In this document: one piece after another, positions 35,932-64,000 of the stretch
Layout: each line of letters opens with the position of its first letter
How positions within the stretch are numbered: position 1 is the stretch's first letter
NCBI GenBank assembly: GCA_913050325.1
Contig: CAJWZP010000001.1
Coordinates: forward strand, 129,611-193,610
From: an uncultured bacterium
GTDB lineage: Bacteria; Desulfobacterota_D; UBA1144
DNA length: 64,000 nucleotides
Direction of reading: 5' to 3'
Program-made: the position numbers and the translations under genes
Notes under the pieces: model-generated
Databases searched by the model: none
What the model was told of the DNA's origin: nothing
Seen by the model: only the letters and a program-made list of their open reading frames with translations

Positions 35932-35954
35932 ACATAAATGATATTCGTTACTAT

Positions 35955-37043: not shown

Positions 37044-37044
37044 T

Positions 37045-38637
37045 TTATGCTCCTTGCATTTTTTTAAATTTTTGATTTATATAGATTTGTTGAAAAATTG
37101 AAATAATATTGCTTACTGTCCAATATAAAATCAACCCAGATGGTAGTCCCCAAAACATTACAGTAAATAATATTGGCATATACTGAAATATTTTTGTTTG
37201 AAATTCATCTGCTCCTGGATTTGGTGGTGTCATTTTTTGGGTTATATACCAAGAAATACCCATTATTAAGGGCAAAGCCCTAAATGGAATACCAAAAATA
37301 TCAAATAGATTTTCTGGTGAAGATAAATCGTTTATCCATAAAAAACTGGTATGTCTTAGATCAAGAGAATATAGTAAAACATTATACAAAGCTACAAATA
37401 CCGGTAGTTGAATTAACATTGGTAGGCATCCACTCAAACTTGATAAAGGATTCATACCTTCTTTTGAATATAGGTTCATAATTTCCTGGTTTTGTGTTTG
37501 CTTATCATCTTTAAATTTTTCTTTTATTTCATCTAATTTTGGCTTTAATAGTGCCATTTTAGATTGCATTTTTTTCATGGACATCATACTTTTAACCGTA
37601 AGAGGAAGAAACAATATTCTAATTAGAATTGTTATTAAGATAATGGCTAGACCATAATTTTTTATATATTGATTTGAAAAATTTAAAAATTTCTCTAATG
37701 GTGACGCCAGCCAATGAAACCAACCTAAATCATGTGCACGCTCTAAGGAACCATAATTAGAGAGAATTTTATAATCTTTAGGACCTAAGAAAATTGTTGA
37801 AGATTGCCTATATTGACCACCTGAAAGTAAATTGATAGTTTTATGACTCAAAACAGTTCTCATAAGTCCAGTGGTTTTCTTTTCATATTTTACAGTTTTT
37901 TCTAGGTTTTCATTAAACAAAACTGCACCCAAAAAATATTTTTTAGAAAAACCGTACCAAGAAATATCTTCAATTTCTTTTATTGGCTCACTAGGTAATG
38001 AATCAATTTTTTCAACATCATCTCCATAAAAATAACTAAAATCATAATATTCAGTTACGTCAATTTCACCTAAAGATTCTTCAAAGATTCTAAAAATAAA
38101 ATTATCTGATGATTTATTTAAGACTAAAATTTCTCTCTCAATAGAATAATCATTTGGTTCAATTAAATATCTTAAAATTATTTCTTTTCCAGAAACTTTA
38201 GATGATAGAAGTATTTCATTTTTGGAATTTTTTATAACATTGAATAGTAAATTTGTATTTATCTCAAAATCTTTGGCTTTAAAAATAATCTTTGATAAAT
38301 ATTCTCTATCGCTAAATACATTTGATTTAATATTAGAACTTGGTTTAACATAGAAATTTTTCAATTCTAAATTAGAGATATATCCACCAACTAAAGATAT
38401 TTCCCCTTTGAACAAATTATTTTCTATTTTTAAAAAATTATTTTTATTTTTAATTTCTTCATTAATTATTTTTTCATCAGAAACAATAAAAGATTCTTTT
38501 TTGACTGTAAATTCATCCTGAAATTCTTGATTTTCAGATATTTTTTCTTTTTCTTTCTCTGGACTCCCGAAAAAGAAATTACTTCCAAAAATAATTAAAA
38601 ACGATCCGAGTAGAAAAATTATATAATTAAGCTTCAA
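37045..38637 (-). CDS. yidC: membrane protein insertase YidC
   Basis: 530 aa with an N-terminal transmembrane segment, a large periplasmic domain and the conserved C-terminal 5-TM core. Confidence 0.9.
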   Translation of the reverse strand: MKLNYIIFLLGSFLIIFGSNFFFGSPEKEKEKISENQEFQDEFTVKKESFIVSDEKIINEEIKNKNNFLKIENNLFKGEISLVGGYISNLELKNFYVKPSSNIKSNVFSDREYLSKIIFKAKDFEINTNLLFNVIKNSKNEILLSSKVSGKEIILRYLIEPNDYSIEREILVLNKSSDNFIFRIFEESLGEIDVTEYYDFSYFYGDDVEKIDSLPSEPIKEIEDISWYGFSKKYFLGAVLFNENLEKTVKYEKKTTGLMRTVLSHKTINLLSGGQYRQSSTIFLGPKDYKILSNYGSLERAHDLGWFHWLASPLEKFLNFSNQYIKNYGLAIILITILIRILFLPLTVKSMMSMKKMQSKMALLKPKLDEIKEKFKDDKQTQNQEIMNLYSKEGMNPLSSLSGCLPMLIQLPVFVALYNVLLYSLDLRHTSFLWINDLSSPENLFDIFGIPFRALPLIMGISWYITQKMTPPNPGADEFQTKIFQYMPILFTVMFWGLPSGLILYWTVSNIISIFQQIYINQKFKKMQGA

Positions 38638-38873
38638 TCTTTATCCTCCAAAGGAACATTATCTTTACCAGGAGGGAAAAAAGGATTACATTTTAAAATT
38701 CTTATTGATGAAAGGTAAATTCCTTTAATTGCACCATGTGTAGATATCGCTTGAATTGCATATTCTGAACAGCTTGGAACAAACCTGCACGATGAAGGTA
38801 AAATTCTACTTAATGATAATTGATAAATTTTAATTAAACCGACTAAAAAGGCTTTAATAAGTTTTTCCATCAT
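38634..38873 (-). CDS. yidD: membrane protein insertion efficiency factor YidD
   Basis: RFVPSCSEYAIQAISTHGAIKG signature. Confidence 0.85.
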   Translation of the reverse strand: MMEKLIKAFLVGLIKIYQLSLSRILPSSCRFVPSCSEYAIQAISTHGAIKGIYLSSIRILKCNPFFPPGKDNVPLEDKD

Positions 38874-39160
38874 CTGATTTTCTTCATGATTAAACTAAGC
38901 TCGTCTTTGATATCCCAAAAAGTAAGATTTAGAATATTTTTATTAGGGTAAAGAGAAAAATCTAAATTAGTTAAGTCTTTACTATAATATTTCCTAAGAA
39001 CTTCTTTTAATCGCCTTTTGTATTTATTTCTCACAACTGAGGTCTTAACTATTTTTTTAGATATTATAACATTTACGTTTGAGTATTCCATATTAGGCAA
39101 AACCTTTACAAAGAAAGTTTTTGACTTATATTTCATTATTTTTAATGGATTAGTAGTCAA
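38870..39160 (-). CDS. rnpA: ribonuclease P protein component RnpA
   Basis: Basic 96-aa protein with VVRNKYKRRLKE, in the rpmH-rnpA-yidD-yidC order. Confidence 0.8.
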   Translation of the reverse strand: MTTNPLKIMKYKSKTFFVKVLPNMEYSNVNVIISKKIVKTSVVRNKYKRRLKEVLRKYYSKDLTNLDFSLYPNKNILNLTFWDIKDELSLIMKKIR

Positions 39161-39391: not shown

Positions 39392-40189
39392 CTATTGAAC
39401 TACATCATCATTTTTAGTAGATTGTTTTTTCTGAGGAGAAGATGCTGAACAGTTGCTAGCTATTTCATCCCACTTTTGCTTATAAATCTTGAGGGATGAA
39501 TCAGCTTTTTCATAATCTTTTTTTGAAATTAAATCCAGAATTAACCAAATATCACTGACAGAATTTTCATTTTTTAATGTGAATTCATGAATCACACTAC
39601 TAATTTCCGCATAATTAAGAACTATCATGCTATCATCAGCAAACTTTTCAATCCAATAGTAAAGTTCTGATAATCCAAAAGTTAGCTCTTTCTTAAATAA
39701 ATCAAAATCATTAGGTATTTCTTCTTTATCATTAGCCTCTAAAATATTTTTAGCATCATTCAATCTTTTTTTTGATAAAGAACATTCTGTATTGTAGTAA
39801 ATTCCATCAGGAGCTATAGCACCCTCACCGGCATGGGAATAGAAAAATTTTTTTTCAGAGTTATCAAATAAAAGAAACCAATGAGCAGGAATTGAATTTT
39901 CAGATTCCATAATATATTTATCAGAATCAATTCCTAATGGTGTTAAATAATAATCACCATTTTCATGTTTAGTAAAAAGACAATCTTTAATATTATCTGG
40001 TTCTATTTCTAGATATTTTGACAATGAATTTCTATACTCTTCATATTCATTACCATAGAAAACATTTTGGGAAGCATTGGGTCCATCCCAATATAACTCA
40101 TGAAATTTAATATACTTATCCCAGTATTGGTTATCCTCTTTAACATTTGACAAATTTTGGTAAACCATTAATGCTGACTTTTTAGACAT
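39392..40189 (-). CDS. hypothetical 265-aa protein co-transcribed downstream of the AHAS-like gene (31-nt gap)
   Basis: ORF only. Acidic with W/Y-rich segments; no recognisable family. Confidence 0.4.
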
Positions 40190-40220: not shown

Positions 40221-41954
40221 CTAGGCCATATCAGGCACTGGACCATCTGGAATAGGATCTTCTGGGTTCAATAGCATATCATCCATTGTTCCACCAGGCG
40301 TTAACATGGGATAAACCATTTCTGTATGGTCAACAATAAGCTCAATTAAAACTACTCCCTTAGTAGACAAACCTTCCCTTAAAGAGGATTCTAAATCTTT
40401 TGGAGAGGATATTTGAAAAGCTTTTGCACCATAGGATTTTGCAATATTTATATAATCTGGATTTAAATCAAATTTACAACATGAATAATTTTTATTAAAA
40501 AATAATGTTTGCCACTGCCTAACCATTCCATGATGACCATTATTTATTAATATAATTTTTAAATTAAGATTATTTGAAACAGCAGTACTAAATTCTTGCA
40601 TATTCATTTGAAAACTACCATCACCACAAACTGCAAGAACTATATCATTTTTTCTTCCAAACTTAGCACCTATAGCCGCAGGAAAACCAAAACCCATAGT
40701 TCCTAATCCGCCAGAAGTAATTTGGTTCCTTGGATTTTCAAAGTCATAATACTGAGCTACCCACATTTGATGTTGGCCAACATCAGTTACAACAACAGCT
40801 TTTCCCTTAGTAATTTTAGACAAAAGACTTATTGCATAGCTAGTTTTAATCATCTTTCCTGATTGAGAGGCTAGTGTTGGGTTTTCTTTTTCCCAATTTT
40901 TAATTTTATCAAACCAACTGTTTCTTTCATTTTTATCTATTTTAAAACTTAACGGGATTTCTTTATTTAATTGCTTAATAACAGTTTTTGCATCTCCAAC
41001 TATAGGGCAATGCACAATGATATTTTTATTTATTGTAGATGGATCAATATCTATGTGAATTACTTTAGCTTTTGGTGCAAACTGATCAAAAAGTCCACCT
41101 GTTGATCTATCATCAAATCTAGCACCAATAGATATTACCAAATCACTGTCGTAAACGGCTTTGTTTGCAAAGTATGATCCATGCATACCAATCCAACTTA
41201 CTCTCATTGGGTCATTGGGAGGATAGCCTCCTAACCCCATTAATGTTAACGTTACTGGAATTTTTAAACGATTTGCGAACTTTTGTAATTCACTTGTAGC
41301 TTCTGAAATAATTATTCCACCACCGCCAAAAACTATCGGTCTCTTAGCATTCATTATCAATTTTGCCGCTTTTTTAATATCATTTAAATTTCCCTCTTTG
41401 GGAATTTTATAACCACTTATTTTATTAATTTTAGGAAAATTAAATTTTGAATTAGAAAACAATACATGCTTAGGAATATCAACCAGAATAGCACCAGGTC
41501 TTCCTGTAGTTGCTAAATTAATTGCTTCTCTTGTAACCCTTGATAAATCAGAAATATTCTCCACTAAGAAATTATGTTTGGTAGTAGACCTTGATATGCC
41601 AATATGATCAATTTGATCAAAGATATTTGTCAATTTTTCATTTTCACTAAAATGACAGACAAAAACTACAATTGGAGCTGAGTCCATATTAGCGGTTTGT
41701 AAACCAGTAATTGTATTTGTCCCGCTTGTATCAGAATCGCAAACTATAATACCCGCCTTTCCAGTAGCTCTCGCATAGCCATCAGCCATATGGCTTGCAC
41801 CTTGCTCGTTCCCAGAAACTATATTTTTAAGTTTTTTCTTAAATTTATCATCAAAAATAGCATCAACTTCGGGCCCAAAGCTATTTGGAGGTGAAAAAAT
41901 GTATTCAACATTATCTTTTATTAAAGTATTAAAAAAAATTTCAATCCCTTTCAT
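40221..41954 (-). CDS. ilvB: acetolactate synthase large (catalytic) subunit-like TPP enzyme, with no adjacent small subunit
   Basis: Aligns along its length to the E. coli IlvI sequence: HMADGYARATG, GISR..KH.FLV, GRPG, CGDGSFQMNMQEF, LINNGHHGMVRQWQ and a C-terminal VYPM..GGTMDDM. The N-terminal GYPGG and TSGPGATN motifs are replaced by SPPNSFGPE and DSDTSGTN. Confidence 0.8.
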   Translation of the reverse strand: MKGIEIFFNTLIKDNVEYIFSPPNSFGPEVDAIFDDKFKKKLKNIVSGNEQGASHMADGYARATGKAGIIVCDSDTSGTNTITGLQTANMDSAPIVVFVCHFSENEKLTNIFDQIDHIGISRSTTKHNFLVENISDLSRVTREAINLATTGRPGAILVDIPKHVLFSNSKFNFPKINKISGYKIPKEGNLNDIKKAAKLIMNAKRPIVFGGGGIIISEATSELQKFANRLKIPVTLTLMGLGGYPPNDPMRVSWIGMHGSYFANKAVYDSDLVISIGARFDDRSTGGLFDQFAPKAKVIHIDIDPSTINKNIIVHCPIVGDAKTVIKQLNKEIPLSFKIDKNERNSWFDKIKNWEKENPTLASQSGKMIKTSYAISLLSKITKGKAVVVTDVGQHQMWVAQYYDFENPRNQITSGGLGTMGFGFPAAIGAKFGRKNDIVLAVCGDGSFQMNMQEFSTAVSNNLNLKIILINNGHHGMVRQWQTLFFNKNYSCCKFDLNPDYINIAKSYGAKAFQISSPKDLESSLREGLSTKGVVLIELIVDHTEMVYPMLTPGGTMDDMLLNPEDPIPDGPVPDMA

Positions 41955-42071
41955 TAGCTTTAGTGTAAATTAATTATTAAAAAAAGAAAATTTATTTGCA
42001 TTTTATTAATTGTCTGGTTACATTAATTACTTCCTACCATCCGCTAATTTATACATAGGAGGCAAATTATT

Positions 42072-43043
42072 ATGCCAAGTCACTTAAACGTTGACACAAA
42101 GTACTGGACTCTAACTGATGAGATTCCAGCACCGCCTGTTGAAAGAGACATTAAGTCATGGATTATCGGAAACCCTTCCGATCCTCTATGGGATATTGAT
42201 GTTCTTCCTTTAACATATACAGATTCAAGATGGTCAGCTTTTATTCTTAAAAGCCCGATGGATTGTCTACAAAGACTATGTCCAAACCCACCTTTATCAG
42301 TATACGAAGGCGAAAACGGAGACTTAGTAGAGTATTGGTACGTACAACACAACAATACAATGCTAGGTCCATATTTAGAAATGGGTGTAACAGTAGCTGC
42401 TACACATACAGATTCTAAAGGTAATACATGGAAAGGTGGATACTATCCATACATGTATTTAACACAGGATTCAGCTGTTGATGCAGGTCGTGTTTTAGGA
42501 TTCCCTAAAAAAATGGCTTACATTAGAGCAACTGAGCATGGCGGCGAAAAAGGAGACGATTTCTTTGGTTTTTCAATGTCAAGAAATGGTTACCTAATGT
42601 GCGCACAGCAAGGTAAATATGACGATGCTCCAGTAAAACCACCATTCTTCTATGGTAAAACTGATTGGGGTAAATTCAACATGAAGGTTATCACACGTCC
42701 TGACGTTGCAAGTTCAGAATGGCAGTTAACATATCTTCCATCTAAACTTCCACCTGCATTTAATGTAGAAGGACACAGATTCCAAATCAAAAACGAGTTA
42801 ACAAGAACTGCTTCAAGCGATGCTTGCGATTGGTTCCAACAAGCAACTCCATTTGATAATATGGGCGCTGAATTGAAAATCGATGAGGTAAAAGGATTGA
42901 TTTCATTCACATTTGATCTTGTTATCCCTCCAGCGGAAGTTATCTGGTCAGAAACATATGAAAGACCAGCTTCTTACAGAGGATATGCAACACCATATCA
43001 GTATGGTTTAAGACAACAATTCCCAATTCACCAAGGTGCATAG
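42072..43043 (+). CDS. acetoacetate decarboxylase (ADC) family protein, paralog 1
   Basis: Aligns with the clostridial ADC core: LTYTDSRW...CPNPPL matches YRTDMDALRKVVPEPLE; YLEMGV matches the Glu76 region; MYLTQDSAVDAGRVLGFPKKMAY matches MYLDNEPAIAVGRELSAYPKK (Schiff-base Lys-Lys). It carries about 50-aa N-terminal and about 70-aa C-terminal extensions. GGAGG ribosome-binding site. Confidence 0.6.
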   Translation: MPSHLNVDTKYWTLTDEIPAPPVERDIKSWIIGNPSDPLWDIDVLPLTYTDSRWSAFILKSPMDCLQRLCPNPPLSVYEGENGDLVEYWYVQHNNTMLGPYLEMGVTVAATHTDSKGNTWKGGYYPYMYLTQDSAVDAGRVLGFPKKMAYIRATEHGGEKGDDFFGFSMSRNGYLMCAQQGKYDDAPVKPPFFYGKTDWGKFNMKVITRPDVASSEWQLTYLPSKLPPAFNVEGHRFQIKNELTRTASSDACDWFQQATPFDNMGAELKIDEVKGLISFTFDLVIPPAEVIWSETYERPASYRGYATPYQYGLRQQFPIHQGA

Positions 43044-43074
43044 GAATTAATTTTAATACGGAGGAAATAAAAAC

Positions 43075-44049
43075 ATGGCTAAACAAGCAAACGAATATAG
43101 CTATCCATGGTTAGAAGAAGGGGAAGTACCACCACTACCACTTGATAGAGATAGAATTCATATCATCTCTCAGGGTGTCGCTGACCCAGTTTTTGACTAT
43201 GACATAGTTCCATTAACATACACAGAAAGCCGTTGGATGGCATATGTTGTTGAAGCAGACGAAGCTGCTTTAAAAGCATTCCACCCAGAGCCTGTTGAAC
43301 TTCATGATAATATCCTAGAGTTCTGGTACGTTATTCACAGAAACACAATGTTAGGACCTTACATGGAATTTGGTGTTACATCATCAGCAACAGTAAAAGG
43401 CTCAGACGGTCAAGTTTGGAAAGGTGGATACTATCCAATTATGTATCTATCTAACGACTCACCAATTTTCGCAGGTAGAGAACCATTTGGTTTCCCTAAA
43501 AAAGCTGCATACATTGCTGCTTTTGAACATGGTACAAATGACAACTACTTCAACTTCTTAATGGAGAGAAGAGGTTATGTTCTTCATTCTGCAAATGGTC
43601 GTTATTCAGACAAACCAGTTGCTGTTAAACCAACATTCTTTGGTAAAACAGACTGGGGTAGACTAAACTACAGAATCACAACTCACCCAAGTGTAGGATA
43701 CAGTGATCACCAAGTTACATATCTTGGTTCAGAATTACCACCACAATTCGGTAATGGACACAGATTCCAGCTAGATCCAAGTTCTATTAGAACTGCTACT
43801 GGAGAAGATATGAGATCATGGTATATGGCAGGAACTCCTTTTGACTTCATGGGAGGTTCATTAGGAGATGTTAAAGTACATGGATTAATTTCATTTACAT
43901 TTAACTTAATCATTCCGCCAGCTTCAATTGTATGGGAGAAAAGAGTTGAAAGAAGTGATGAAGATACTGCTAAGCATCTTCTATTCTCAACTCCTTACAA
44001 ATATACAATGAGACACAGATTCTTAACACCTTACTATCCTGGTGCATAA
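43075..44049 (+). CDS. acetoacetate decarboxylase (ADC) family protein, paralog 2
   Basis: About 45% identical to paralog 1 by eye. FHPEPVEL, YMEFGV and MYLSNDSPIFAGREPFGFPKKAAY retain the same catalytic positions. GGAGG ribosome-binding site. Confidence 0.6.
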   Translation: MAKQANEYSYPWLEEGEVPPLPLDRDRIHIISQGVADPVFDYDIVPLTYTESRWMAYVVEADEAALKAFHPEPVELHDNILEFWYVIHRNTMLGPYMEFGVTSSATVKGSDGQVWKGGYYPIMYLSNDSPIFAGREPFGFPKKAAYIAAFEHGTNDNYFNFLMERRGYVLHSANGRYSDKPVAVKPTFFGKTDWGRLNYRITTHPSVGYSDHQVTYLGSELPPQFGNGHRFQLDPSSIRTATGEDMRSWYMAGTPFDFMGGSLGDVKVHGLISFTFNLIIPPASIVWEKRVERSDEDTAKHLLFSTPYKYTMRHRFLTPYYPGA

Positions 44050-44054
44050 GAATA

Positions 44055-44180
44055 TAATAAAAAAGCAACTAGCCTATTTTAATAGGCTAGTTGCCCTTAA
44101 ATGAAAATTAGCGTTTTGGGGTGGAAGGCCGTTGACGTGACTATCCGCTAAGTAGTCTAACCTTCCACCTAAAACCAATA
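44055..44180 (-). ncRNA. candidate structured small RNA: long 15-bp hairpin followed (minus strand) by an intrinsic terminator with a U-run
   Basis: A stem at 44113-44128 pairs with 44161-44175 (GTTTTGGGGTGGAAGG with CCTTCCACCTAAAAC, one bulge) around a 32-nt loop. A second hairpin at 44065-44094 (GCAACTAGCCTA/TAGGCTAGTTGC) is followed on the minus strand by TTTTTTTATTAT. No coding potential. Confidence 0.3.
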
Positions 44181-44231
44181 ATAGCTTTAAAAGCATCAAA
44201 AAATCAATAAAACTTTATATATTATGTATTT

Positions 44232-44495
44232 TTGTTTATATTCCTTGTTATGTCACCAATTATTGTCACCAAATGTTCATGCTCTGAAGACAAAATATAT
44301 CTAAGTATTCCTAAAGAAATATATTTTAGTGGAAGAATAGATGGAAAAAATTGGGAATTAGAATATTCGAAAAAAGTAAAAGAAGAAAAATATCAATTTT
44401 ATAAAAAAAATATTAAAAAAAACTCAGATCAATGGATAGAAATAGAAAAAAAAGAGGTCTTTTGTAAAAAATGTGGGAAAAAACTAAAATTTTGA
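44232..44495 (+). CDS. hypothetical small Cys-containing protein (CSC...CKKC), possible signal peptide
   Basis: 87-aa ORF with a TTG start at 44232 and an alternative ATG at 44250. The C-x-C and C-x2-C pairs suggest a zinc-ribbon-like fold. Confidence 0.35.
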   Translation: MFIFLVMSPIIVTKCSCSEDKIYLSIPKEIYFSGRIDGKNWELEYSKKVKEEKYQFYKKNIKKNSDQWIEIEKKEVFCKKCGKKLKF

Positions 44496-44618: not shown

Positions 44619-46160
44619 TTAAATACCTTTTGGTGAAGCAATTTTAGGGTGTAGTTTTCTCCATCTTAAATTATTTAAAGCATTGATAAATGCTTTTGCA
44701 CTAGCAACAATTACATCTGTACTTGATCCCTTACCTCGAGCGGTATGTGATGATTCATTAATTATTACTGAAACTTCGGCTTGAGCATCCATTCCACTAG
44801 TGACAGAAGCTACATTATAGGAATTTAATTTTGGATTTAGCTCAACAGCTTTACAAATGGATCTGAAAACAGAATCAATAGGTCCATCACCAAATTCGTT
44901 AACGTTGACTTCTTTACCATCTATACTAAGTGATAGCTTTGCTGAAGGTTTTTCATCTGTTCCTGAAGAACAATACAAAGATATTAACTGATAGTAATTT
45001 CCCGACCTAACAAACTCTTCATTAATCAATGCTTCAATATCTTCATCAAATACATATTTCTTTTTATCACATAGTTCTTTAAATTTTTTAAAAGCAATTT
45101 CAAATTTATCACTGGATAAGCTATATCCAAATTCGTTGAGTCTATCACGAAAAGCATGCCTTCCAGAATGTTTACCTAAGACAATATAGTTAGATGGAAT
45201 TCCAACCTCTTCTGCTTCCATTATCTCATATGTATTTCTTTGCTTTAAAACTCCATCTTGGTGAATTCCCGCCTCATGTGCAAATGCGTTAGCGCCAACT
45301 ATAGCTTTATTGGGCTGAACATTTACCCCTGTTACACTACTAACGAGTTTACTGCAAGGATATATATTTTTTGTATTAATAGCTGTATCAAAAGGATTTA
45401 AATCATTTCGGACTTTTAGTGCCATTACAATTTCTTCTAACGAAGCATTCCCTGCTCTTTCGCCCAAACCATTAATTGTACATTCTACTTGACGAGCTCC
45501 TTCATGGATGGCGGCTAAAGAATTAGCAACCGCTAGTCCTAAATCATTATGGCAATGAACACTAATTGTAACTTTATCAATTCCAGCAACTCCCTCTCTT
45601 ATCGAGCTAATCATCTTAGCAAATTCACTTGGAATTGTGTATCCAACAGTATCAGGAATATTTATTGTTGTAGCACCCGATTGGATTGCAACAGATATTG
45701 CTGAACACAAAAAATCTATGTCTGAGCGTGTGGCATCTTCACATGAAAATTCAACATTTGAAGTATATTTAGCAGCATGTCTTACAGATTGACCTATGAT
45801 TTCTAAAACTTCATCTTTGGTTTTTTTTAACTTATAATCAAGATGAATATCGGATGTTGCAATAAATGTGTGAATTCTAGGGTTTACGGCTTGTTTAATA
45901 GCATCCCATGCTCTATCAATATCTTTCAAATTTGCTCTACAAAGACCTGCTACTTCACAATTTTTAATCTGATTAGCGATTAATTTTACAGAATTAAAGT
46001 CGCCTTCAGATGCAATAGGAAATCCTGCTTCAATTATATCGACACCCAACTTCTCCAGCTGAAGAGCTACTTTAACCTTTTCTTCTTCATTCATACTACA
46101 GCCAGGTGCTTGCTCACCATCTCTCAGTGTTGTATCAAAAATTTTAACAAAATTATTCAT
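44619..46160 (-). CDS. leuA: 2-isopropylmalate synthase LeuA (long form with C-terminal regulatory domain)
   Basis: FDTTLRDGEQAPG, HCHNDLGLAVANSLAA. The ATG at 46160 gives MNNFVKIFDTTLRDGEQ; the track start at 46199 is a TTG. Confidence 0.85.
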   Translation of the reverse strand: MNNFVKIFDTTLRDGEQAPGCSMNEEEKVKVALQLEKLGVDIIEAGFPIASEGDFNSVKLIANQIKNCEVAGLCRANLKDIDRAWDAIKQAVNPRIHTFIATSDIHLDYKLKKTKDEVLEIIGQSVRHAAKYTSNVEFSCEDATRSDIDFLCSAISVAIQSGATTINIPDTVGYTIPSEFAKMISSIREGVAGIDKVTISVHCHNDLGLAVANSLAAIHEGARQVECTINGLGERAGNASLEEIVMALKVRNDLNPFDTAINTKNIYPCSKLVSSVTGVNVQPNKAIVGANAFAHEAGIHQDGVLKQRNTYEIMEAEEVGIPSNYIVLGKHSGRHAFRDRLNEFGYSLSSDKFEIAFKKFKELCDKKKYVFDEDIEALINEEFVRSGNYYQLISLYCSSGTDEKPSAKLSLSIDGKEVNVNEFGDGPIDSVFRSICKAVELNPKLNSYNVASVTSGMDAQAEVSVIINESSHTARGKGSSTDVIVASAKAFINALNNLRWRKLHPKIASPKGI

Positions 46161-46179
46161 TGAATTAAAAAAATATAAG

Positions 46180-47727
46180 TCAACCTTCAGTTTTGTCAAT
46201 TTTGTTGAACAAAAGGTCTAATTTTTTAATTGTTGCACCTGGTAATAAACTTTCAATTTTATTGAAGCCTGAAAAGCTATTAGACTTATCATCAATTTTT
46301 ATATTAAGTGCATTTAATATTTTTTTACTAGAATCAGGCATAATTGGAAATAATAAAATAGATATCAATCTAATCATTTCCAATGATGTTCTTAGTACTC
46401 TTTTTAATCCTTCATGATCATTATCTTTTGCTAACTTCCATGGTTGGGTTTCATCTATGTACTTATTTGTACTTGAAACTATATCCATAGCACTTGATAT
46501 TGCTTTGCTAAATTCAGCAATTTTAAATTGCACCATATAATCAGATATTTTTTCATCACTTATTTTAATTAAATCTGACTCACGTTCTGTAATTTCTACT
46601 TCAGGAACAATGCCATTTAAATTTTTCATAGTCATAGAAAAAACCCTATTTACTAAATTTCCATAATTGTTTGCAAGTTCTGAATTAACTCTTGCAATTA
46701 ATGAATTTTGGGAAAAGTCACCATCATTTCCAAATGGTACTTCTTTAAGTAGGAAATATCTAAATTGGTCTAGACCATATTTGCTTATCATATCATCAGG
46801 ATCAATTACGTTACCTAATGATTTCGACATTTTTTCTTTTTCGACTGTCCACCAACCATGTGCAATAATTTTTTTTGGTAAAGGTAATTCTGCAGCCATT
46901 AACAATGCAGGCCAATAAATTGCATGAAACCTGAGAATATCCTTTCCAACTATATGAAAATCAGCAGGCCAAAATTTTCTTATGTTATCACTGTTTAAAT
47001 TAGGAAATTCTAAAGCTGTTAAATAATTAGTTAGAGCATCAATCCAAACATATACTATGTGTCTATCATCATCTGGCACTTTAACACCCCAGCTAAAACT
47101 TGTTCGCGATATTGATAAATCTTTAAGTCCTTGTTTAACAAAACTTATTACTTCATTAAATCTAGATTTAGGTGTAACAAAATCAGGGTTATTTTCATAA
47201 AAATCTAGTAGTTTACTTTCCCATGATGATAATTTAAAAAAATAGCTAGACTCTTCTACCCATTCTACAGGAGAACCGCTGGGTGCTTTAGAATCTACCA
47301 ATTCATCTTCACTATAAAAAGCCTCATCTCTCACGGAGTACCACCCTGAGTATTTATCAAGATATATTTGATTATTATTATTTAAAATTTCCCAAAATTT
47401 CTGAACTCCCGCTTTATGTTTTGACGAACTAGTTCTAATAAAATGGTCATTTGTAAGATTTAAGTTATTTGACATAGCTTGAAAATTTTTACTCATGCCA
47501 TCAACAAAATCCTGAATAGGAATGTTTCTATTTTTGGCTGCTTGTTCAATTTTTTGACCATGTTCGTCCGTTCCAGTTAAGAAAAAAACTTCTTTATCTT
47601 TGAGCCTGTAGAATCTAGAAAGTGCATCACAAGCAATACTGGTGTAAGCATGCCCAACATGTGGAACATCATTTACATAATATATAGGTGTTGTGATATA
47701 AATACCTTTTTGATCAATTTCAGTCAT
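46180..47727 (-). CDS. metG: methionine--tRNA ligase MetG (short form, no C-terminal tRNA-binding domain)
   Basis: HVGHAYTSIACD (HIGH motif) and KMSKSLGNVI (KMSKS motif). Confidence 0.9.
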   Translation of the reverse strand: MTEIDQKGIYITTPIYYVNDVPHVGHAYTSIACDALSRFYRLKDKEVFFLTGTDEHGQKIEQAAKNRNIPIQDFVDGMSKNFQAMSNNLNLTNDHFIRTSSSKHKAGVQKFWEILNNNNQIYLDKYSGWYSVRDEAFYSEDELVDSKAPSGSPVEWVEESSYFFKLSSWESKLLDFYENNPDFVTPKSRFNEVISFVKQGLKDLSISRTSFSWGVKVPDDDRHIVYVWIDALTNYLTALEFPNLNSDNIRKFWPADFHIVGKDILRFHAIYWPALLMAAELPLPKKIIAHGWWTVEKEKMSKSLGNVIDPDDMISKYGLDQFRYFLLKEVPFGNDGDFSQNSLIARVNSELANNYGNLVNRVFSMTMKNLNGIVPEVEITERESDLIKISDEKISDYMVQFKIAEFSKAISSAMDIVSSTNKYIDETQPWKLAKDNDHEGLKRVLRTSLEMIRLISILLFPIMPDSSKKILNALNIKIDDKSNSFSGFNKIESLLPGATIKKLDLLFNKIDKTEG

Positions 47728-56969: not shown

Positions 56970-57107
56970 GATTATTACCTAACCTTCCCAATATATTACT
57001 TTTTTTTTATTATTTTGTCATTTAATTTAAAAAAAAAGATATTAACATTTTTCCACATTGTGTTGATAGATTACTTTAAAAACTCTCTAAGTTATTGATA
57101 TTATTGA

Positions 57108-58514: not shown

Positions 58515-58631
58515 TATGTATATTATTTCTGAAGAGCAGAAATTCGCAAAGTTTTCTTTGCGAACAAATGACCTCTCAGATATAATTATTTGTCGTATCA
58601 CCCCACAATTTTAAATACATTGGAGGAAAAA

Positions 58632-59777
58632 ATGAGTTTATGCTTTGATTTTTCAGATGACCAAAAAATGATGAAAGAAGCAATAGTAACTTTTTGCAAG
58701 GAGGAAATATCACCCTTAGTTGAAAAAGCAGAAGAGGAACAATCTTTTCCACTTGAGCTATATCCCAAGATGGCCGAAATGGGTTTTCTTGGAATTTGTT
58801 TCGAAGAAAAATATGGTGGACTCGGTTTAGATAAAGTAACCCAATGTATACTGGCTGAAGAGTTAGGAAAAACTTGCGCCGGGATTGCTAAAGGGGTAGC
58901 AGCGCATGTTGACCTCGGTTCGCTCCCTATAGCAAAATTTGGTACAGAAGCCCAAAAAGAAAAATATCTTGTACCATCAATTGCAGGTGAAATGATTGGC
59001 GCATTAGCAATAACAGAACCAAATGCTGGCACTGATGCAAGATCAATCAAGACAAATGCTGTTAAAGATGGTGATTCATGGATTTTAAATGGAACTAAAA
59101 CTTGGTGTTCTAATGGTGTTACATGTAACTATGTTATTGTTGCTGCTTACACAAACAAAGAGGATAAGAAAAATGGAATAAGTATCTTCATTGTCGATAA
59201 AGACCTTCCTGGTTTTGAAGTTTCTAGAAAAATTCATAAACTTGGCCATAGGTCTTCGGACGTTGCTGAACTCGTATTTGAAAACTGTAAGTTACCAGCT
59301 GACGCTTTGCTAGGTGAAGAAGAAGGAAAATTTCAAGCACTTATGGACACTCTTATTGCGGCTAGAATTTCCCATGCTATAAAAAGTGTTGGCTTAGCAA
59401 CTGCTGCTTTTGAATACGCATTGCAATACTCAAAAGAAAGAGAAGCTTTTGGAAGACCAATAAATAAATTTCAAGGCGTAAGTTTTAAACTTGCTCAAAT
59501 GGCTGTGAAAATTGAAACAGCTAGACTCTTAGGTTATAAAGCTGCATGGCTTTATGATCAGGGAAGGCCTTGTGTAATGGAAGCCTCGATGGCAAAACTA
59601 TACTCTGCTGAAATTGTTCAGTGGTGTGCTAGTGAAGGAGTTCAAGTTTTAGGAGGTTATGGTTATGCAACAGAATACGATGCTGAAAGATTCTATCGAG
59701 ATGCAAAATTATCCTCAATTACCGAGGGAACCTCAGAAATTCAACATGTTATAATAGCAAAGGAGCTTGGAATTTAA
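58632..59777 (+). CDS. acyl-CoA dehydrogenase
   Basis: ACAD fold (catalytic-base region YATEYDAERFYRDAKLSSITEGTSEIQ). GGAGG ribosome-binding site before the ATG at 58632. Confidence 0.85.
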   Translation: MSLCFDFSDDQKMMKEAIVTFCKEEISPLVEKAEEEQSFPLELYPKMAEMGFLGICFEEKYGGLGLDKVTQCILAEELGKTCAGIAKGVAAHVDLGSLPIAKFGTEAQKEKYLVPSIAGEMIGALAITEPNAGTDARSIKTNAVKDGDSWILNGTKTWCSNGVTCNYVIVAAYTNKEDKKNGISIFIVDKDLPGFEVSRKIHKLGHRSSDVAELVFENCKLPADALLGEEEGKFQALMDTLIAARISHAIKSVGLATAAFEYALQYSKEREAFGRPINKFQGVSFKLAQMAVKIETARLLGYKAAWLYDQGRPCVMEASMAKLYSAEIVQWCASEGVQVLGGYGYATEYDAERFYRDAKLSSITEGTSEIQHVIIAKELGI

Positions 59778-59826
59778 ATAAATTTTGTTAATCTAAAAAA
59801 ATATTATTTTAAAGGAGAATTATAAA

Positions 59827-61038
59827 ATGAGTGCACAAATACCAAATATAGAAGACACAAGAGAACTTCTCAAAAAAAACCAAATTGGTATAGTTGGTGT
59901 GGGAGAAACCGAACAAGGTAAAATCCCAGGGAAAAGTTCTTTTCATTTTTTATCTGAAGCATCTAAGCTGGCGATAGAAGATGCAGGATTAAATAAATCA
60001 GATGTAGATGGAGTCATAACAGCTTTTTCATTAGTTGAAGAAACTTTTATGCATTGTACAACATTTGCAGACTACATTGGAATAAATCCAAAATATTTTG
60101 AATCAGTTGCAATTGGGGGAGCAACCGCAGTATGGATGACAGCTGCTGCTGCAATGGCAATAAACTCAGGGCAAGCAGAAGTTGTTTTATGTGTAAGAGG
60201 GGACAATACTCTATCAGGAATATCTTCAACAGGAATGATTGCACTTATTAGAGAAATGTGTCATGGAGAATTTGAATATCCTTTTGGATTAACAACTCCT
60301 GGCGGATATGCTTTGATGGCTCAAAGATATTTACATGAGAGTCAAGGTAAAAGAGAGCATTTAGCTTCCGTTGCAGTAACAATGAGACAACATGCACAAA
60401 TGAAAGAAAATGCTATGAATAAAGATGATCTAACCATGGACGACATAATGGGCGCAAGGCTACTAGCTTCACCTTTAACTAAATTCGATTGTTCAATTAT
60501 TTCTGATGGCGGAGCAGCATTTATCGTTACAACAGCTGCAAAGGCAAAAGAATTAGGTTTAAAAAGAGATCCTATTTATCTTCATGGTATGGGGCAGGGA
60601 TTTTCTCACCAATATTTAACATCATGTGAAGACTTAGATCAAATATACGGAGCTATACAAAAATCTGGAGATAAAGCTTTTAAAACAGCCGGAATGTCAA
60701 ATCAAAATGTTGATATAACTTTTCTTTATGATTGTTTTACTATTACTACTTTATTAGAGCTTGAAGGATTAGGAATTGTTCCAAGAGGTCAGGCCGGGGC
60801 CGCAGCTTTAGAAGGAAGACTTCATAAAGATGCCGATATCCCATTAAATACAAATGGTGGATTACTATCTCAAGCTCATTTAGGTGCTATGCATCATGTT
60901 GTAGAAGCTGTTCTTCAATTGCGTGGAGAAGCTGGTGATAGGCAAGTTAAAGATCCAAATGTCGCTTTAGTTCATGGTAACGGTGGCATTGTATCTGCTC
61001 ATAGTACAATTTTATTAGGAAATGAACCATTAAGTTAA
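59827..61038 (+). CDS. SCP-x/Ltp2-type thiolase-fold protein (lipid-transfer-protein-like thiolase or retro-aldolase)
   Basis: C-terminal NTNGGLLSQAHLGAMHHVVEAVLQLRGEAG typical of SCP2-type thiolases. Confidence 0.75.
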   Translation: MSAQIPNIEDTRELLKKNQIGIVGVGETEQGKIPGKSSFHFLSEASKLAIEDAGLNKSDVDGVITAFSLVEETFMHCTTFADYIGINPKYFESVAIGGATAVWMTAAAAMAINSGQAEVVLCVRGDNTLSGISSTGMIALIREMCHGEFEYPFGLTTPGGYALMAQRYLHESQGKREHLASVAVTMRQHAQMKENAMNKDDLTMDDIMGARLLASPLTKFDCSIISDGGAAFIVTTAAKAKELGLKRDPIYLHGMGQGFSHQYLTSCEDLDQIYGAIQKSGDKAFKTAGMSNQNVDITFLYDCFTITTLLELEGLGIVPRGQAGAAALEGRLHKDADIPLNTNGGLLSQAHLGAMHHVVEAVLQLRGEAGDRQVKDPNVALVHGNGGIVSAHSTILLGNEPLS

Positions 61039-61059
61039 TTAAATATTTAGGAGATTATT

Positions 61060-61485
61060 ATGTCAGAAGAAAAAATTGAATATGCAAAACCTCTACCAGA
61101 TTTTAGACCAGAAACAAAACCTTTTTGGGAAGGAACTAAGCAGCATAAATTGCTTTTACCAAAGTGTAAAGACACTGGTAAAGTTTTCTTTTATCCACGT
61201 GCTATTAGCCCTTTTCCAGGTTCAGTGAACATGGATTTTGATTGGGTTGAATCAACAGGTAAAGGGAAAGTGTGGACTTACTCAGTTCATTATATGGGTC
61301 CAACAAAAGCTTACAAAGGTGAAACCTATGTTGTTGCTATGGTTGAACTTGAAGACGGAGTAAAAATGATGTCTAATATTGTGGATTGTGATCCAGAATC
61401 AGTAACAATAGGTATGGAAGTTGAAGTAGTTTTTGAAGATGCAACAGAAGAAGTTACTTTTGCAAAATTTAAACCTGTACAATAG
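61060..61485 (+). CDS. DUF35 OB-fold protein with a degenerate zinc ribbon
   Basis: PFWEG...LLLPKC...FFYPRAISPFPGS...WVESTGKGKVWTYSV matches the DUF35 pattern, but only one of the four ribbon Cys residues is retained. Confidence 0.7.
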   Translation: MSEEKIEYAKPLPDFRPETKPFWEGTKQHKLLLPKCKDTGKVFFYPRAISPFPGSVNMDFDWVESTGKGKVWTYSVHYMGPTKAYKGETYVVAMVELEDGVKMMSNIVDCDPESVTIGMEVEVVFEDATEEVTFAKFKPVQ

Positions 61486-61496
61486 GGAGATTTAAA

Positions 61497-61943
61497 ATGG
61501 ATGATAAACTTTTTTATGAAGATGTTCCAGAAGAAACAGAACATGTATCCAGTGGAAGAACAATAACAGAAGCAGATGTTGTAAATTTTGCTGGTCTTTC
61601 CGCAGATTTTAACAATATGCATATTGATGAAGAATTTGCTAAAAATACAGTTTTTGGAACTAGAGTTGCTCACGGTATGTGTGTATTATCTATCGCTACC
61701 GGACTATGGTTTACAATGCCAAGATTAGCAACAATTGCCTTTATGGGATTACAAGATTGGCGTTTTTCAGGTGCAGTTAAACCTGGTGATACCGTAAAAA
61801 TCACAAGAAAATTAGTTGAGAAAAAAGAACACAAAAGACCAAATATGGGTTTTCTTAACTGGGAAGTTAATGTTGTAAACCAAAACGACGAGGTAGTTCA
61901 AAAAGGTGTTTGGGTTATTTTAGTTCAAAGAAAAGAATCTTAA
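61497..61943 (+). CDS. MaoC-like (R)-specific enoyl-CoA hydratase (hot-dog fold)
   Basis: DFNNMHIDEEFA...FGTRVAHGM hot-dog/MaoC signature. Confidence 0.8.
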   Translation: MDDKLFYEDVPEETEHVSSGRTITEADVVNFAGLSADFNNMHIDEEFAKNTVFGTRVAHGMCVLSIATGLWFTMPRLATIAFMGLQDWRFSGAVKPGDTVKITRKLVEKKEHKRPNMGFLNWEVNVVNQNDEVVQKGVWVILVQRKES

Positions 61944-61953
61944 TTTAATACTA

Positions 61954-62008: not shown

Positions 62009-62074
62009 TTTTGTTGACTTTTATCAAGTATATATGTTAAAAAGTACAAAACCCTTAAAAGGAGGTATAAGTAT

Positions 62075-62569
62075 ATGTTAGGATATGTACTCGTACTAGT
62101 AGGTTTCGTATTCTTTTGTAACGGTATGACCGTGTTAGGTAAAACTGGTGCAAAAGAAGTTGGTATGCTGAACGGTGCTGTTGCAGTTCTTATCTTAATC
62201 GCGGCATTCACAGGTGCTGGATTAGGACCAGAAGGTGCAGCAAGTACAACACTCGTTTCAGTTTTTGCTCTTATTTATGTTATAGCTTTTGGTGTTTTCA
62301 CATTAGGCCATGATGCAAAAGGGCTAGGTTGGTATTGTCTATTCGCTACTATAGTTTTTCTATGGTACGGACAGTATTTCTTAGGTGTTGGTGCAATGGA
62401 ACTAGGTATGTTCAATATTGCATGGGCAGTTCTTACACTTGTAGCATTTTTAGTTTTAGCTCAAGGTAAAAACCTAGGAACATTACTAGGATATTTATTT
62501 GTTGCAGAAGCGTTTGTAACTCTATTAATTCCTGGAATGAACTTCCTACTTAAAGGAACACTATATTAA
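62075..62569 (+). CDS. AmiS/UreI-family urea/short-chain-amide channel
   Basis: N-terminal MLGYVLVLVGFVFFCNGMTVLGK matches the UreI/AmiS start MLGLVLLYVG..L..NG...L.K. Six transmembrane segments and a GLGWYCLF motif. Strong AGGAGG ribosome-binding site. Confidence 0.7.
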   Translation: MLGYVLVLVGFVFFCNGMTVLGKTGAKEVGMLNGAVAVLILIAAFTGAGLGPEGAASTTLVSVFALIYVIAFGVFTLGHDAKGLGWYCLFATIVFLWYGQYFLGVGAMELGMFNIAWAVLTLVAFLVLAQGKNLGTLLGYLFVAEAFVTLLIPGMNFLLKGTLY

Positions 62570-62626
62570 TAAGTTATAAATTATATTAATTTATTTTTTT
62601 AAAGGGCTGATTTATCAGCCCTTTTT

Positions 62627-63220
62627 TTATGGCATTATCCATTTTGATGAAACCAAATTTCCATCTTTTACATCCATTCTTACCCTTACATGACCAGAAT
62701 AATTTAATTCAAGTACATCAAGTTGAACAACATTTGCATCGACTATAGAGAACACTTTGTAACCTAAGTTTTCATCTTCAACATTTAGATCGTCATTAAA
62801 AATTGGTTTCTCTATATCTGATGATGGTGCTTTTGGAACGTAATAGCATCTTCTACTTATTTCCTGAGACTTATCCCAAGTATCTTTTTTTGTTTTTTCG
62901 TCAGATGATAAATAACTATCGCATTTTATTCTAATTTGTAGTTTTGATTTTTGATTATAAAAGAGTAAAAAACTTTTGAAATTTTTTTCCAAATGCTTAA
63001 CTTTTCTAGATCTAAAATCAGTATGGAATCTCAAAGTAAAACTATTTTTAACTAACTTTCTCAATACAACGATTCTCGAGTCAGGATAACCAGAATCTTC
63101 GTCATATGTAGAGAAATTGAAAAGATGAAAACCATGCTTTCTGTCAACACTGCCTCTTTCAATTTCACCCAATATATGGGAATAAATATCTGTAAAACTT
63201 TTATCTCTAATTGTTTCCAT
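62627..63220 (-). CDS. pdxH: pyridoxamine 5'-phosphate oxidase PdxH
   Basis: YPDSRIVVLRKL...FRSRKVKHLEKN...LLFYNQKS and a C-terminal W..P, matching the PdxH (PSRMVLLK...SRKA) pattern. ATG at 63220. Confidence 0.75.
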   Translation of the reverse strand: METIRDKSFTDIYSHILGEIERGSVDRKHGFHLFNFSTYDEDSGYPDSRIVVLRKLVKNSFTLRFHTDFRSRKVKHLEKNFKSFLLFYNQKSKLQIRIKCDSYLSSDEKTKKDTWDKSQEISRRCYYVPKAPSSDIEKPIFNDDLNVEDENLGYKVFSIVDANVVQLDVLELNYSGHVRVRMDVKDGNLVSSKWIMP

Positions 63221-64000
63221 ACCACTTAGGTAATTTATCTCCAGTAAAAATTGAAACATTTTTTGTTTTTAAATATTCATTCAAACCTTCAACTCCCAAT
63301 TCTTTACCATAACCACTTTGTTTGAATCCGCCATATGGTGTTTCAGGGATAATACCACCATAAGTATTTATCCATAAATATCCTGCGTCTATTGATTTAG
63401 AGACTTTAATTGCTTTTGATATATTTTGGGTCCAAATTCCACCTGCTAGTCCGTATGATGTCTCATTTGCCAGATTTATCGCTTCCTCTTCTGTAGTAAA
63501 AGACATAATAGTTACAACGGGCCCGAAAACTTCATCTTGAAATAAAACATTCTTTGTATCTTTAATTTTAATTATTGTAGGTTTATAAAAATATCCTTGG
63601 AATTCTGCATTAACTTCACCACCAAGCAAAAGCTCTCCTCCCTCGGCAATACCTTGCTTAACATATGCATCTACTTTTTTTAAGTGTGGTTGAGAAATTA
63701 GACACCCAATTTCGGTATTAATATTATCAGGCATTCCTTGGTTAATAATTGATGCCTTTCCTACATAGCTTTCAACAAATTCATCTATAATTTTTTCGTC
63801 AACAAGAAGTCTTGTAACAGCTGTACAATTTTCTCCTTGATTAAAAAAGCCTCCGCGCAAATTTGCTTCTAAGCATGAATCTATATTTGAATCAGAAAAA
63901 ATAATATTAGGAGCTTTTCCTCCCAATTCTAAAGAAATCTTAGTTAAATTTTCAGATGAATTTTTTACAATTTCTTTTCCAACTTTAGTAGATCCTGTAA
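63207..64000 (-). CDS. NAD(P)-dependent aldehyde dehydrogenase, C-terminal part (N-terminus beyond the window)
   Basis: Hand extension above the track ORF gives ...GSTKVGKEI...ISLELGGKAPNIIF and the catalytic FFNQGENCTA Cys motif. No stop codon before position 64000. Confidence 0.85.
   Translation of the reverse strand, partial: TGSTKVGKEIVKNSSENLTKISLELGGKAPNIIFSDSNIDSCLEANLRGGFFNQGENCTAVTRLLVDEKIIDEFVESYVGKASIINQGMPDNINTEIGCLISQPHLKKVDAYVKQGIAEGGELLLGGEVNAEFQGYFYKPTIIKIKDTKNVLFQDEVFGPVVTIMSFTTEEEAINLANETSYGLAGGIWTQNISKAIKVSKSIDAGYLWINTYGGIIPETPYGGFKQSGYGKELGVEGLNEYLKTKNVSIFTGDKLPKWYGNN

Follow-up and report, generated by a model that had tools for sequence, protein, structure and literature searches.

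A distinct acetoacetate decarboxylase-like gene pair beside ilvB in a marine Dadabacteria genome is an inserted duplicate of a pair in a conserved acyl-CoA and aldehyde gene cluster

Canonical acetoacetate decarboxylase (ADC; EC 4.1.1.4), with solved structures from Clostridium acetobutylicum (Adc, 3bh2), Chromobacterium violaceum (3bgt) and Legionella (3c8w), is the ~245-residue product of a single gene known from the ctfAB/adc solvent operon, and the clostridial enzyme is a homododecamer. The 64,000-nucleotide stretch of contig CAJWZP010000001.1 analysed here (hereafter the window) carries two tandem genes, called ADC-A and ADC-B, whose products share the Pfam family and the fold of these enzymes and keep the Schiff-base lysine, the lysine adjacent to it and the equivalent of E76; an invariant arginine lies beside the R29 position. 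They differ from the canonical enzyme in length (~80 additional residues, with conserved extensions at both termini as well as insertions inside the chain), in being two 46%-identical tandem paralogues (323 and 324 residues) rather than one protein, and in having acyl-CoA and aldehyde enzymes as their genomic context. A search of the available literature found no description of a two-subunit ADC-like enzyme or of this gene cluster.

Other described systems resemble the locus in part. Sbi00515 (4zbo/4zbt/6eej), MppR (4jm3 and others) and Swit_4259 (5upb) have the same fold and the Schiff-base lysine chemistry predicted for the pair, and their genes, like those of the pair, adjoin genes for partners in a dedicated pathway; unlike the pair, these proteins are single-gene homo-oligomers of ~255-265 residues, and they are not known to have the Lys-Lys dyad. 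The acetoin operons alsS-alsD and budB-budA also place a thiamine pyrophosphate (TPP) enzyme that forms acetolactate beside a decarboxylase-family gene, with a beta-keto acid as the substrate class, whereas the TPP enzyme in the window is of the biosynthetic type, the decarboxylase-like genes do not have the AldC fold, and the adjacency is a lineage-specific insertion. Finally, the Ltp2-ChsH2(DUF35), ChsH1/2 MaoC and ChsE acyl-CoA dehydrogenase (ACAD) modules of actinobacteria correspond to the ACAD, the MaoC protein, the Cys-less thiolase-fold protein with its DUF35 partner and the aldehyde dehydrogenase (Aldedh) of the cluster described below; Sal/Shy/Scd/Sad of Pseudomonas is likewise a module for aldolytic cleavage of acyl-CoA side chains. 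However, the ACAD of the cluster is of short-chain and not steroid type, the presumed position of the second catalytic Tyr is His, and the known modules include neither an ADC-like pair nor an AmiS channel or a sirtuin.

The account that I favour, with a probability of roughly 0.6, is that ADC-A and ADC-B form a distinct ADC-like pair, that the copy beside the acetolactate synthase gene ilvB is an inserted duplicate, and that a short-chain carbonyl cluster is the true context of the pair. Judged from sequence, the pair is most likely a hetero-oligomeric Schiff-base decarboxylase of beta-keto acids that acts in short-chain carbonyl metabolism; any specific substrate is put forward with less confidence than the account as a whole. 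The host is a streamlined pelagic marine Dadabacteria genome, an assignment made because a scan of one genome per species returned 246 ADC relatives of which the best 80 are nearly all from Dadabacteria (placed by NCBI under Thermodesulfobacteriota). Genomes of pelagic marine Dadabacteria are ~1.22 Mb, >96% coding and have limited or no gene duplications (PMC8115339). The G+C content of the window is 28%. A search for homologues of ADC-B gave 91 proteins, and gene order was compared by means of 17 proteins against 92 related loci that carry the ADC pair.

The first-pass annotation of this DNA, made from the letters alone, had described two tandem ADC-family paralogues, ~45% identical and extended at both ends relative to the clostridial enzyme, transcribed divergently from an acetohydroxyacid synthase (AHAS) homologue. 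All of these features were recovered: the ADC-like reading frames lie on the plus strand and ilvB on the minus strand (Table 1), the paralogues are 45.8% identical over 321 residues, and both exceed the 244-residue clostridial protein at either end. The profile search and structure prediction that it had suggested as checks agree with it as well. Both proteins score above the Pfam ADC cut-off (PF06314, 29.8 bits), with a match that spans only profile positions 16-170 of 238 (the N-terminal two thirds), and AlphaFold monomer models built from a 23-24-sequence alignment (pLDDT 74.5 and 76.0, the latter for ADC-A) have the ADC fold. The top 24 Foldseek matches in the PDB are all ADC-superfamily structures (E 8e-16 to 4e-11), with the true ADCs 3bgt, 3c8w and 3bh2 first at E ~1e-15 and Sbi00515, Swit_4259 and MppR at ~1e-12. 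The best PDB sequence matches of ADC-B are again true ADCs (3bgt at E 1.6e-8), and the similarity in sequence to Sbi00515/MppR-type members is weaker (E 0.12 vs 1e-8 for true ADCs).

Positions of catalytic residues were read from phmmer alignments to the solved ADC structures. GFPKK of both proteins falls on P114-K115-K116 (YPKK) of 3bh2, the dyad being K146/K147 in ADC-A, and the Glu of PY(L/M)E(M/F)G falls on E76 (E103 in ADC-A, E98 in ADC-B). The dyad, this Glu and the Arg are invariant in 24/24 aligned A- and B-type sequences. The lysine dyad and Glu76 equivalent named by the first-pass annotation are thus both in place, and its view that both paralogues are catalytically competent can be kept at the protein level, where the invariant Lys-Lys and Glu suggest two active subunits. 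The N-terminal 45 and C-terminal 25 residues also hold invariant positions although they are modelled with low confidence in the monomers; these ends may be arms that become ordered only within an oligomer. On sequence criteria the two proteins belong to the ADC superfamily but not to the canonical ADC family, since they depart from the latter in their scores against its curated model, in subunit length and in its single-gene architecture.

An exhaustive phmmer search of 1.84 billion cluster representatives returned 14 matches at E<=1e-30, including about five full-length 50%-identity clusters, followed by a gap down to the canonical 245-residue ADCs at E ~1e-5. The pair therefore belongs to a small and tight clade that is separate from the characterised ADCs. 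Orthologues of ADC-B in other bacterial metagenome-assembled genomes (MAGs) are 66-86% identical, and an A type and a B type can be told apart across phyla (Dadabacteria, Desulfofundulus and other lineages), nearly always arranged A then B with a spacer of ~30 nt. The two types stem from an old duplication and have nearly always been inherited together as this A-then-B tandem. Because the tandem is kept across phyla, and because both genes have been duplicated together, a hetero-oligomer of ADC-A and ADC-B is plausible.

Several contigs with ADC genes have been assigned to bins of unrelated taxa (Methanosuratincola, Bathyarchaeota, Ruegeria, Spirochaetia and Methylococcaceae), which reflects either mis-binned Dadabacteria DNA or an operon that is mobile or carried on plasmids. 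On some contigs (L029, 1182-3401; L012, 858-2631) the ADC operon is immediately preceded by a ParA gene and an HTH_36/DnaD_N (RepA-like) gene.

The genome from which the window derives has a second ADC pair. Two Tara Oceans contigs (L007/L008) are 99.5% identical to window positions 55758-64000 and match the window at 100% in their ACAD, thiolase-like, DUF35, MaoC and PNPOx-like proteins, so that they represent the same population. Where the window ends on the right, both contigs continue with Aldedh, ADC-B, ADC-A and SIR2, which puts the second pair beyond that end; by identity with L007 it lies at ~64.75-66.73 kb in window-equivalent coordinates, inverted, and ~20.7 kb from the first. The two copies are 92.5% identical in DNA over exactly 42072-44051, from the start codon of A to the stop of B, and 93% (A) and 96% (B) identical in protein. 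The dN/dS between them is 0.19 for A and 0.10 for B, low values that indicate purifying selection on both copies. The pair at 42.07-44.05 kb is the second, inserted copy, and the original lies in the conserved cluster past the right end.

A different arrangement of the same two copies was found in the MAG SP78 (L014/L016), in which leuA adjoins the copy on the SIR2 side and Aldedh adjoins the other: L014 follows the gene order of L007 as far as the end of ADC-B, after which it carries leuA. A flip of the 20-kb segment bounded by the inverted copies would give this layout, with the caveat that metagenome assemblies here cross a repeat. Seventeen Dadabacteria genomes have two ADC loci (L030/L031, L034/L035, L041/L042 and 14 more pairs), which are 100-400 kb apart and differ in their contexts, each context being kept between genomes. 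Within a genome the copies are 98-100% identical in DNA over ~2.25-2.4 kb, and the AmiS genes have been duplicated along with the ADC pair (93-98% identical within genomes); the ADC proteins of these 17 genomes are 72-78% identical to those of the window. Near-identity within genomes coupled with divergence between them indicates an old duplication that has been homogenised by gene conversion, that is, concerted evolution.

The site beside ilvB can be compared with that of a more distant marine relative (L098/L099; ilvB 77% identical, with the same altered N-terminal motifs), which has the order metG-leuA-(82 aa)-ilvB-DUF8083-rnpA-yidC-jag and no ADC gene between leuA and ilvB. When L098 is aligned to the window by blastn, homology stops at 41980 and resumes at 44235, and the window therefore carries a 2254-bp insertion. 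Besides the ADC pair it contains 91 bp from upstream of the pair and two hairpins, one a terminator and the other also conserved. Among the 92 related loci ilvB is next to the pair only in L013, from a close relative whose ADC proteins are 97% identical. In SP78, which is also a close relative, this leuA-proximal copy has SIR2 and not ilvB at its flank. The adjacency of ilvB and the ADC pair, which are divergent and separated by 117 bp, is a by-product of the insertion of a spare copy in one marine Dadabacteria lineage.

The AHAS itself scores 635.9 bits against the biosynthetic AHAS model TIGR00118 (cut-off 538.35) but 270.1 bits against the catabolic AlsS model NF006378 (cut-off 510), has all three TPP-enzyme domains (PF02776, PF00205 and PF02775), lies two genes from leuA, and is the orthologue of the Dadabacteria ilvB found in ilvBNC operons, an order seen as ilvB-ilvN-ilvC in the non-marine L100. 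The first-pass annotation had remarked that it has no ilvN partner and that its N-terminal motifs are altered, and both remarks proved sound. No ilvN-like reading frame was found in the window by tblastn with Dadabacteria IlvN and with E. coli IlvH, and neither ilvN nor ilvC lies beside ilvB within the fetched flanks of the marine relatives L098, L099 and L013. A homologue search with a non-marine IlvN query gave at least 120 matches, and those listed were all 78-100% identical to the query.

As to the motifs, the window protein lacks the canonical Pyr-domain set GxPGG, RHEQG, TSGPGATN and GQV...DAFQE, and the marine variant has SPPNSFG, GNEQGA (in which the catalytic Glu is kept), CDSDTSGTN and CHFSE...NIFDQ. 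The changes lie in residues 1-120, in the ThDP Pyr domain, and the catalytic Glu and the other two domains are canonical. These motifs are common to a marine clade at 74-100% identity (including P0095, P0099 and P0104), whereas ilvB of non-marine Dadabacteria (55-58% identical) has canonical GLPGGY, RHEQGA, TSGPAATN and TGQVP...DAFQE. Since the variant motifs are kept between relatives whose DNA is ~79% identical, they are under selection and not decaying, and since the remodelling occurs in relatives without ADC genes nearby, it is independent of the ADC pair. The AHAS of the window is the anabolic ilvB of its lineage, a neighbour of the pair and not its partner.

The remodelling of the Pyr domain coincides with loss of the adjacent ilvN-ilvC that non-marine Dadabacteria hold, and the marine AHAS may work without a regulatory subunit or have an altered specificity. 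One further AHAS sequence (P0107) is canonical over its first ~300 residues and nearly identical to the marine Dadabacteria variant over the remainder; it is probably a chimeric metagenome assembly, or a recombinant.

Composition was the other feature by which the first-pass annotation had set the pair apart from the surrounding genes. The pair does have a G+C content of 0.39 against a window mean of 0.28, with K+N+I at 12-13% against 23-27% in its neighbours, G+P+A+W at 24-25% and Trp at 2-3%, but it is not unique in this, as raised GC and like amino-acid usage are also found in GroEL, the ACAD and the Ltp2-like gene of the window. The excess GC is mostly at codon positions 1 and 2, and GC3 rises only slightly (0.25-0.27 vs 0.16-0.20). 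The pair and its cluster are also far better conserved than housekeeping genes of the same loci: against L013, identity is 97% for the ADC proteins, 83% for ilvB, 83% for leuA and 71% for metG, and against L016 it is 96% for ADC-B, 97% for AmiS, 95% for the thiolase-like protein and 53% for TrmE. Strong constraint on the proteins in an AT-drifting genome thus accounts for the composition of the pair. Identity of the ADC proteins drops in step with Dadabacteria relatedness (97, 96, 91, 88 and 84%, then 72-78%). Foreign origin was rejected as the main explanation of the GC content, given the excess at GC1 and GC2 as in GroEL and cluster genes, the identity that tracks phylogeny and the low dN/dS.

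The ancestral context of the pair is its cluster copy. The order SIR2-ADC-A-ADC-B-Aldedh-PNPOx-like-AmiS/UreI-MaoC-DUF35-thiolase-like-ACAD-TrmE recurs in L015-L022, and the cluster recurs in rearranged form in ~60 Dadabacteria loci; most of it lies within the window, at 58.6-64 kb. The ACAD is closest to butyryl-CoA and short-chain acyl-CoA dehydrogenases (structures in Table 1). The thiolase-like protein has GATA where true thiolases have CGSG/CGTG, matches the Ltp2 aldolase 6ok1 at E 5e-49 and is encoded next to DUF35 and MaoC genes. The missing nucleophilic Cys and these two neighbours suggest that it is probably an Ltp2-like retro-aldolase rather than a thiolase, although the mechanism is not certain, as the position aligned with Ltp2 'AYIHG', which I take to be that of the second catalytic Tyr (Tyr344), is His. 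Upstream of SIR2 there is a further thiolase, this one a true thiolase, with a DUF35 partner of its own. Taken together, the ACAD, MaoC, Ltp2-like/DUF35 and Aldedh proteins would constitute the enzyme set of aldolytic acyl-CoA shortening, in which dehydrogenation and hydration precede a retro-aldol cleavage and the aldehyde is then oxidised.

The anaerobe loci, from Desulfofundulus luciae and two metagenome contigs, combine the ADC pair with an orthologue of the ACAD (53% identical) and with a true thiolase/DUF35 pair. These loci also encode a KAS-III/HMGCS-like protein, ETF and TRAP or MFS transporters; some have in addition an aminotransferase, an acyl-CoA ligase and SIR2, others a sigma-54 activator that carries a MimR_N domain. 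None of the cluster neighbours of the pair reaches a curated equivalog cut-off, and the substrate can therefore not be read from gene context.

On the account favoured here, A and B would assemble into a hetero-oligomer, and each subunit would decarboxylate a beta-keto acid by way of a Schiff base between the acid and an active-site lysine of low pKa. The substrate would most likely be acetoacetate, as the simplest candidate, or another short 3-oxo acid supplied by the neighbouring short-chain acyl-CoA module. A small neutral ketone, for example acetone, would then be the product, and the AmiS/UreI-type channel could let it pass; the known cargo of such channels, acetamide and urea, is isosteric with acetone. 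The two copies might be kept for dosage.

Several observations weigh against this account. The C-terminal half of both proteins lies outside the Pfam profile match, and the NCBIfam ADC model PRK02265 gives them 31.6 and 52.8 bits against a cut-off of 150. In the phmmer alignment the invariant Arg (R53) sits one residue past the R29-aligned position, and the E61 position is an invariant Trp with an invariant Glu two residues before it. At one locus (L091, 9013-12975) the B-type gene stands alone, flanked by a TetR regulator and a gene of the methylmalonyl-CoA-mutase family and with no A-type gene within 10 kb, so that the heteromer is likely but not universal. The proposed substrate is drawn from generic neighbours, a CoA-transferase or thioesterase to free the 3-oxo acid is not conserved in the cluster, and the downstream Aldedh fits an aldehyde-releasing aldolase equally well. 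Finally, the inversion is reconstructed from metagenome assemblies that cross a repeat.

A different chemistry for the pair would be that of Sbi00515, MppR or Swit_4259, with the pair acting as a Schiff-base aldolase-dehydratase or hydratase-aldolase, cleaving or forming a keto acid or ketone adduct and releasing an aldehyde for Aldedh. Gene order is consistent with this, as Aldedh comes directly after ADC-B in the ancestral cluster and the pair in Desulfofundulus has an aminotransferase after it, in parallel with MppR and MppQ; so are the low scores against the canonical NCBIfam model and the fact that the characterised non-canonical members of the superfamily, which the fold matches at E ~1e-12, are aldolase-dehydratases. 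Yet the sequence and fold of the pair are nearer to true decarboxylases than to Sbi00515 or MppR, the Lys-Lys dyad and E76 equivalent, which are hallmarks of the decarboxylase family, are invariant, and the Ltp2-like aldolase of the cluster could by itself supply an aldehyde for Aldedh. An aldolase is thus possible but rather unlikely. It is far less probable that the pair is assimilatory, fixing or activating a small carbonyl (e.g. acetone) that enters through AmiS/UreI, by carboxylation or aldol addition, and feeding a C4 acyl-CoA module. The co-duplication of AmiS with the pair, the sigma-54 activator with a MimR_N domain near the pair in one anaerobe context (MimR presumably being an acetone-responsive regulator), alcohol dehydrogenases near the pair in L006 and the acyl-CoA mutase beside the lone B-type gene of L091 could all be read in this way, but they are circumstantial links drawn from different lineages. 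Furthermore, ATP-independent carboxylation of acetone is thermodynamically unfavourable (roughly +17 kJ/mol), and no carboxylase-type energy coupling is encoded nearby.

The copy beside ilvB has explanations of its own. If it were a recently transferred or decaying spare without its own function, its raised GC would mark foreign DNA, and the difference in GC (0.39 vs 0.28) and GC3, as well as the ParA/RepA-like genes beside related operons on some contigs, would fit. I give this very little credence, because both reading frames are intact with dN/dS of 0.10-0.19 against the other copy, the proteins are 97% identical to the L013 copy while the flanking ilvB and leuA are 83% identical, identity declines with Dadabacteria relatedness, and raised GC1 and GC2 are shared with GroEL and cluster genes. 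The first-pass annotation had instead proposed a functional cassette in which the AHAS makes 2-acetolactate and the ADC pair decarboxylates it to acetoin (or 2-aceto-2-hydroxybutyrate to its ketone) in place of AldC/BudA. Acetolactate is indeed a beta-keto acid, the units are only 117 bp apart in a layout shared with L013, and the AHAS has no adjacent ilvN and a remodelled substrate-channel region. The proposal had named co-occurrence with AHAS in relatives as its test, however, and the adjacency is confined to the window and 1/92 loci: marine relatives with the same AHAS variant, such as L098, have no ADC genes beside ilvB, and the SP78 copy is flanked by SIR2 instead. Moreover, the pair is a 2.25-kb inserted duplicate whose parent copy lies in the acyl-CoA/aldehyde cluster, and the AHAS scores as biosynthetic, not as AlsS, and adjoins leuA. 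The cassette was rejected on this evidence of synteny and insertion; synteny largely refutes the acetoin route, which has hardly any likelihood left.

An AHAS-coupled acetolactate decarboxylase of ADC fold would, if true, have been a new acetoin route, and the evidence points to an adjacency produced by an accident of duplication. The clade that the pair represents within the ADC superfamily is compact, uncharacterised and under very strong conservation, with two diverged and apparently both catalytic subunits, kept in two gene-converted copies across a whole bacterial lineage that includes pelagic genomes with few or no duplications (PMC8115339). Its conserved partners point to an undescribed short-chain acyl-CoA/aldehyde/ketone metabolism in a cosmopolitan uncultured marine heterotroph. 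A bolder version, which I consider doubtful, is that small carbonyls pass at high flux through an uncharacterised route centred on the A/B pair, together with the AmiS/UreI-type channel, the Ltp2-like aldolase/DUF35, MaoC and ACAD, one that for instance makes or uses a ketone (acetone) without the known ATP-dependent carboxylase or monooxygenase and is kept as two gene-converted copies in a ~1.2 Mb genome. The identity of the substrate would give a function to one of the most conserved gene sets of Dadabacteria and could bear on the cycling of volatile ketones and aldehydes in the ocean.

Table 1. Features of the window around the inserted ADC pair and in the conserved cluster at its right end.
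Feature	Coordinates	Strand	Details
DUF8083 protein	39392..40189	-	265 aa; downstream of ilvB in marine Dadabacteria
ilvB, biosynthetic-type acetolactate synthase large subunit, marine-Dadabacteria variant	40221..41954	-	577 aa; TIGR00118; three TPP domains
Inserted segment with duplicate ADC pair and short flanks	41981..44234	.	2254 bp; in window and L013, absent from L098 leuA-ilvB spacer
ADC-A (A-type subunit, signature GR-VLGFPKKM)	42072..43043	+	323 aa; Pfam ADC 70.1 bits; ADC fold, pLDDT 76; 93% identical to A gene of L007 cluster copy
ADC-B (B-type subunit, signature GREPFGFPKKA)	43075..44049	+	324 aa; Pfam ADC 74.1 bits; ADC structures are best PDB sequence matches
Hairpin, 17-bp-stem palindrome, directly 3' of ADC-B stop	44061..44098	.	
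Conserved G+C-rich hairpin, ~63 nt (GGGGTGGAAGG...CCTTCCACC)	44113..44175	.	in inserted segment, downstream of ADC-B terminator
leuA (2-isopropylmalate synthase), other flank of insertion site	44619..46199	-	NF002086 783.7 bits vs cut-off 532
Short-chain (Bcd/SCAD-like) acyl-CoA dehydrogenase (ACAD)	58590..59777	+	PDB 5ol2_C, 4l1f, 1jqi; 100% identical in L007, linked there to ADC pair
Ltp2-like thiolase-fold protein without nucleophilic Cys	59827..61038	+	403 aa; GATA; PDB 4u4e, 6ok1
DUF35 (zf-ChsH2 + OB_ChsH2_C), partner of Ltp2-like protein	61060..61485	+	Pfam
MaoC-type (R)-specific enoyl-CoA hydratase	61497..61943	+	Pfam, PDB
AmiS/UreI-family channel	62075..62569	+	Pfam 82 bits; co-duplicated with ADC pair in other Dadabacteria
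PNPOx-like FMN-binding protein	62627..63259	-	Pfam; synteny
Aldehyde dehydrogenase (Aldedh), 3' part, runs off window	63207..64000	-	identity with L007

Of the two hairpins in the inserted segment, the one directly after ADC-B is likely a bidirectional terminator. The G+C-rich hairpin that follows is nearly identical in L013 (11031-11093), where the flanking DNA is ~79% identical, and is absent from the other ADC copy (L007) and from L098. Its folding z-score is -2.9 to -3.0, and an Rfam search of the spacers and of this hairpin gave no match. The leuA-ilvB spacer of all marine relatives also contains a small reading frame of 82-87 codons (window 44232-44495; L013 11166-11414; L098 7626-7874), whose product has two Cys pairs and a zinc-ribbon-like C-terminus and is probably a real small protein.

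The DUF8083 protein owes its assignment to precomputed Pfam, and had no match in the Pfam, NCBIfam or PDB sets that were searched locally. A homologue (38-40% identical) lies directly downstream of the second ADC pair in non-marine Dadabacteria (L041, L052, L054, L055 and others, ~11115). As a universal third partner of the pair it was rejected, since the proteins encoded after the pair in other phyla show no similarity to it. In L013 a katG gene (catalase-peroxidase, 703 aa; 4972-7083) that is absent from the window is inserted between DUF8083 and ilvB, which marks the neighbourhood as an insertion hotspot. Beyond DUF8083, rnpA, yidC and jag lie at 35928-39160 and the cumulative GC skew peaks at ~31-35 kb; this region may be near the replication origin.

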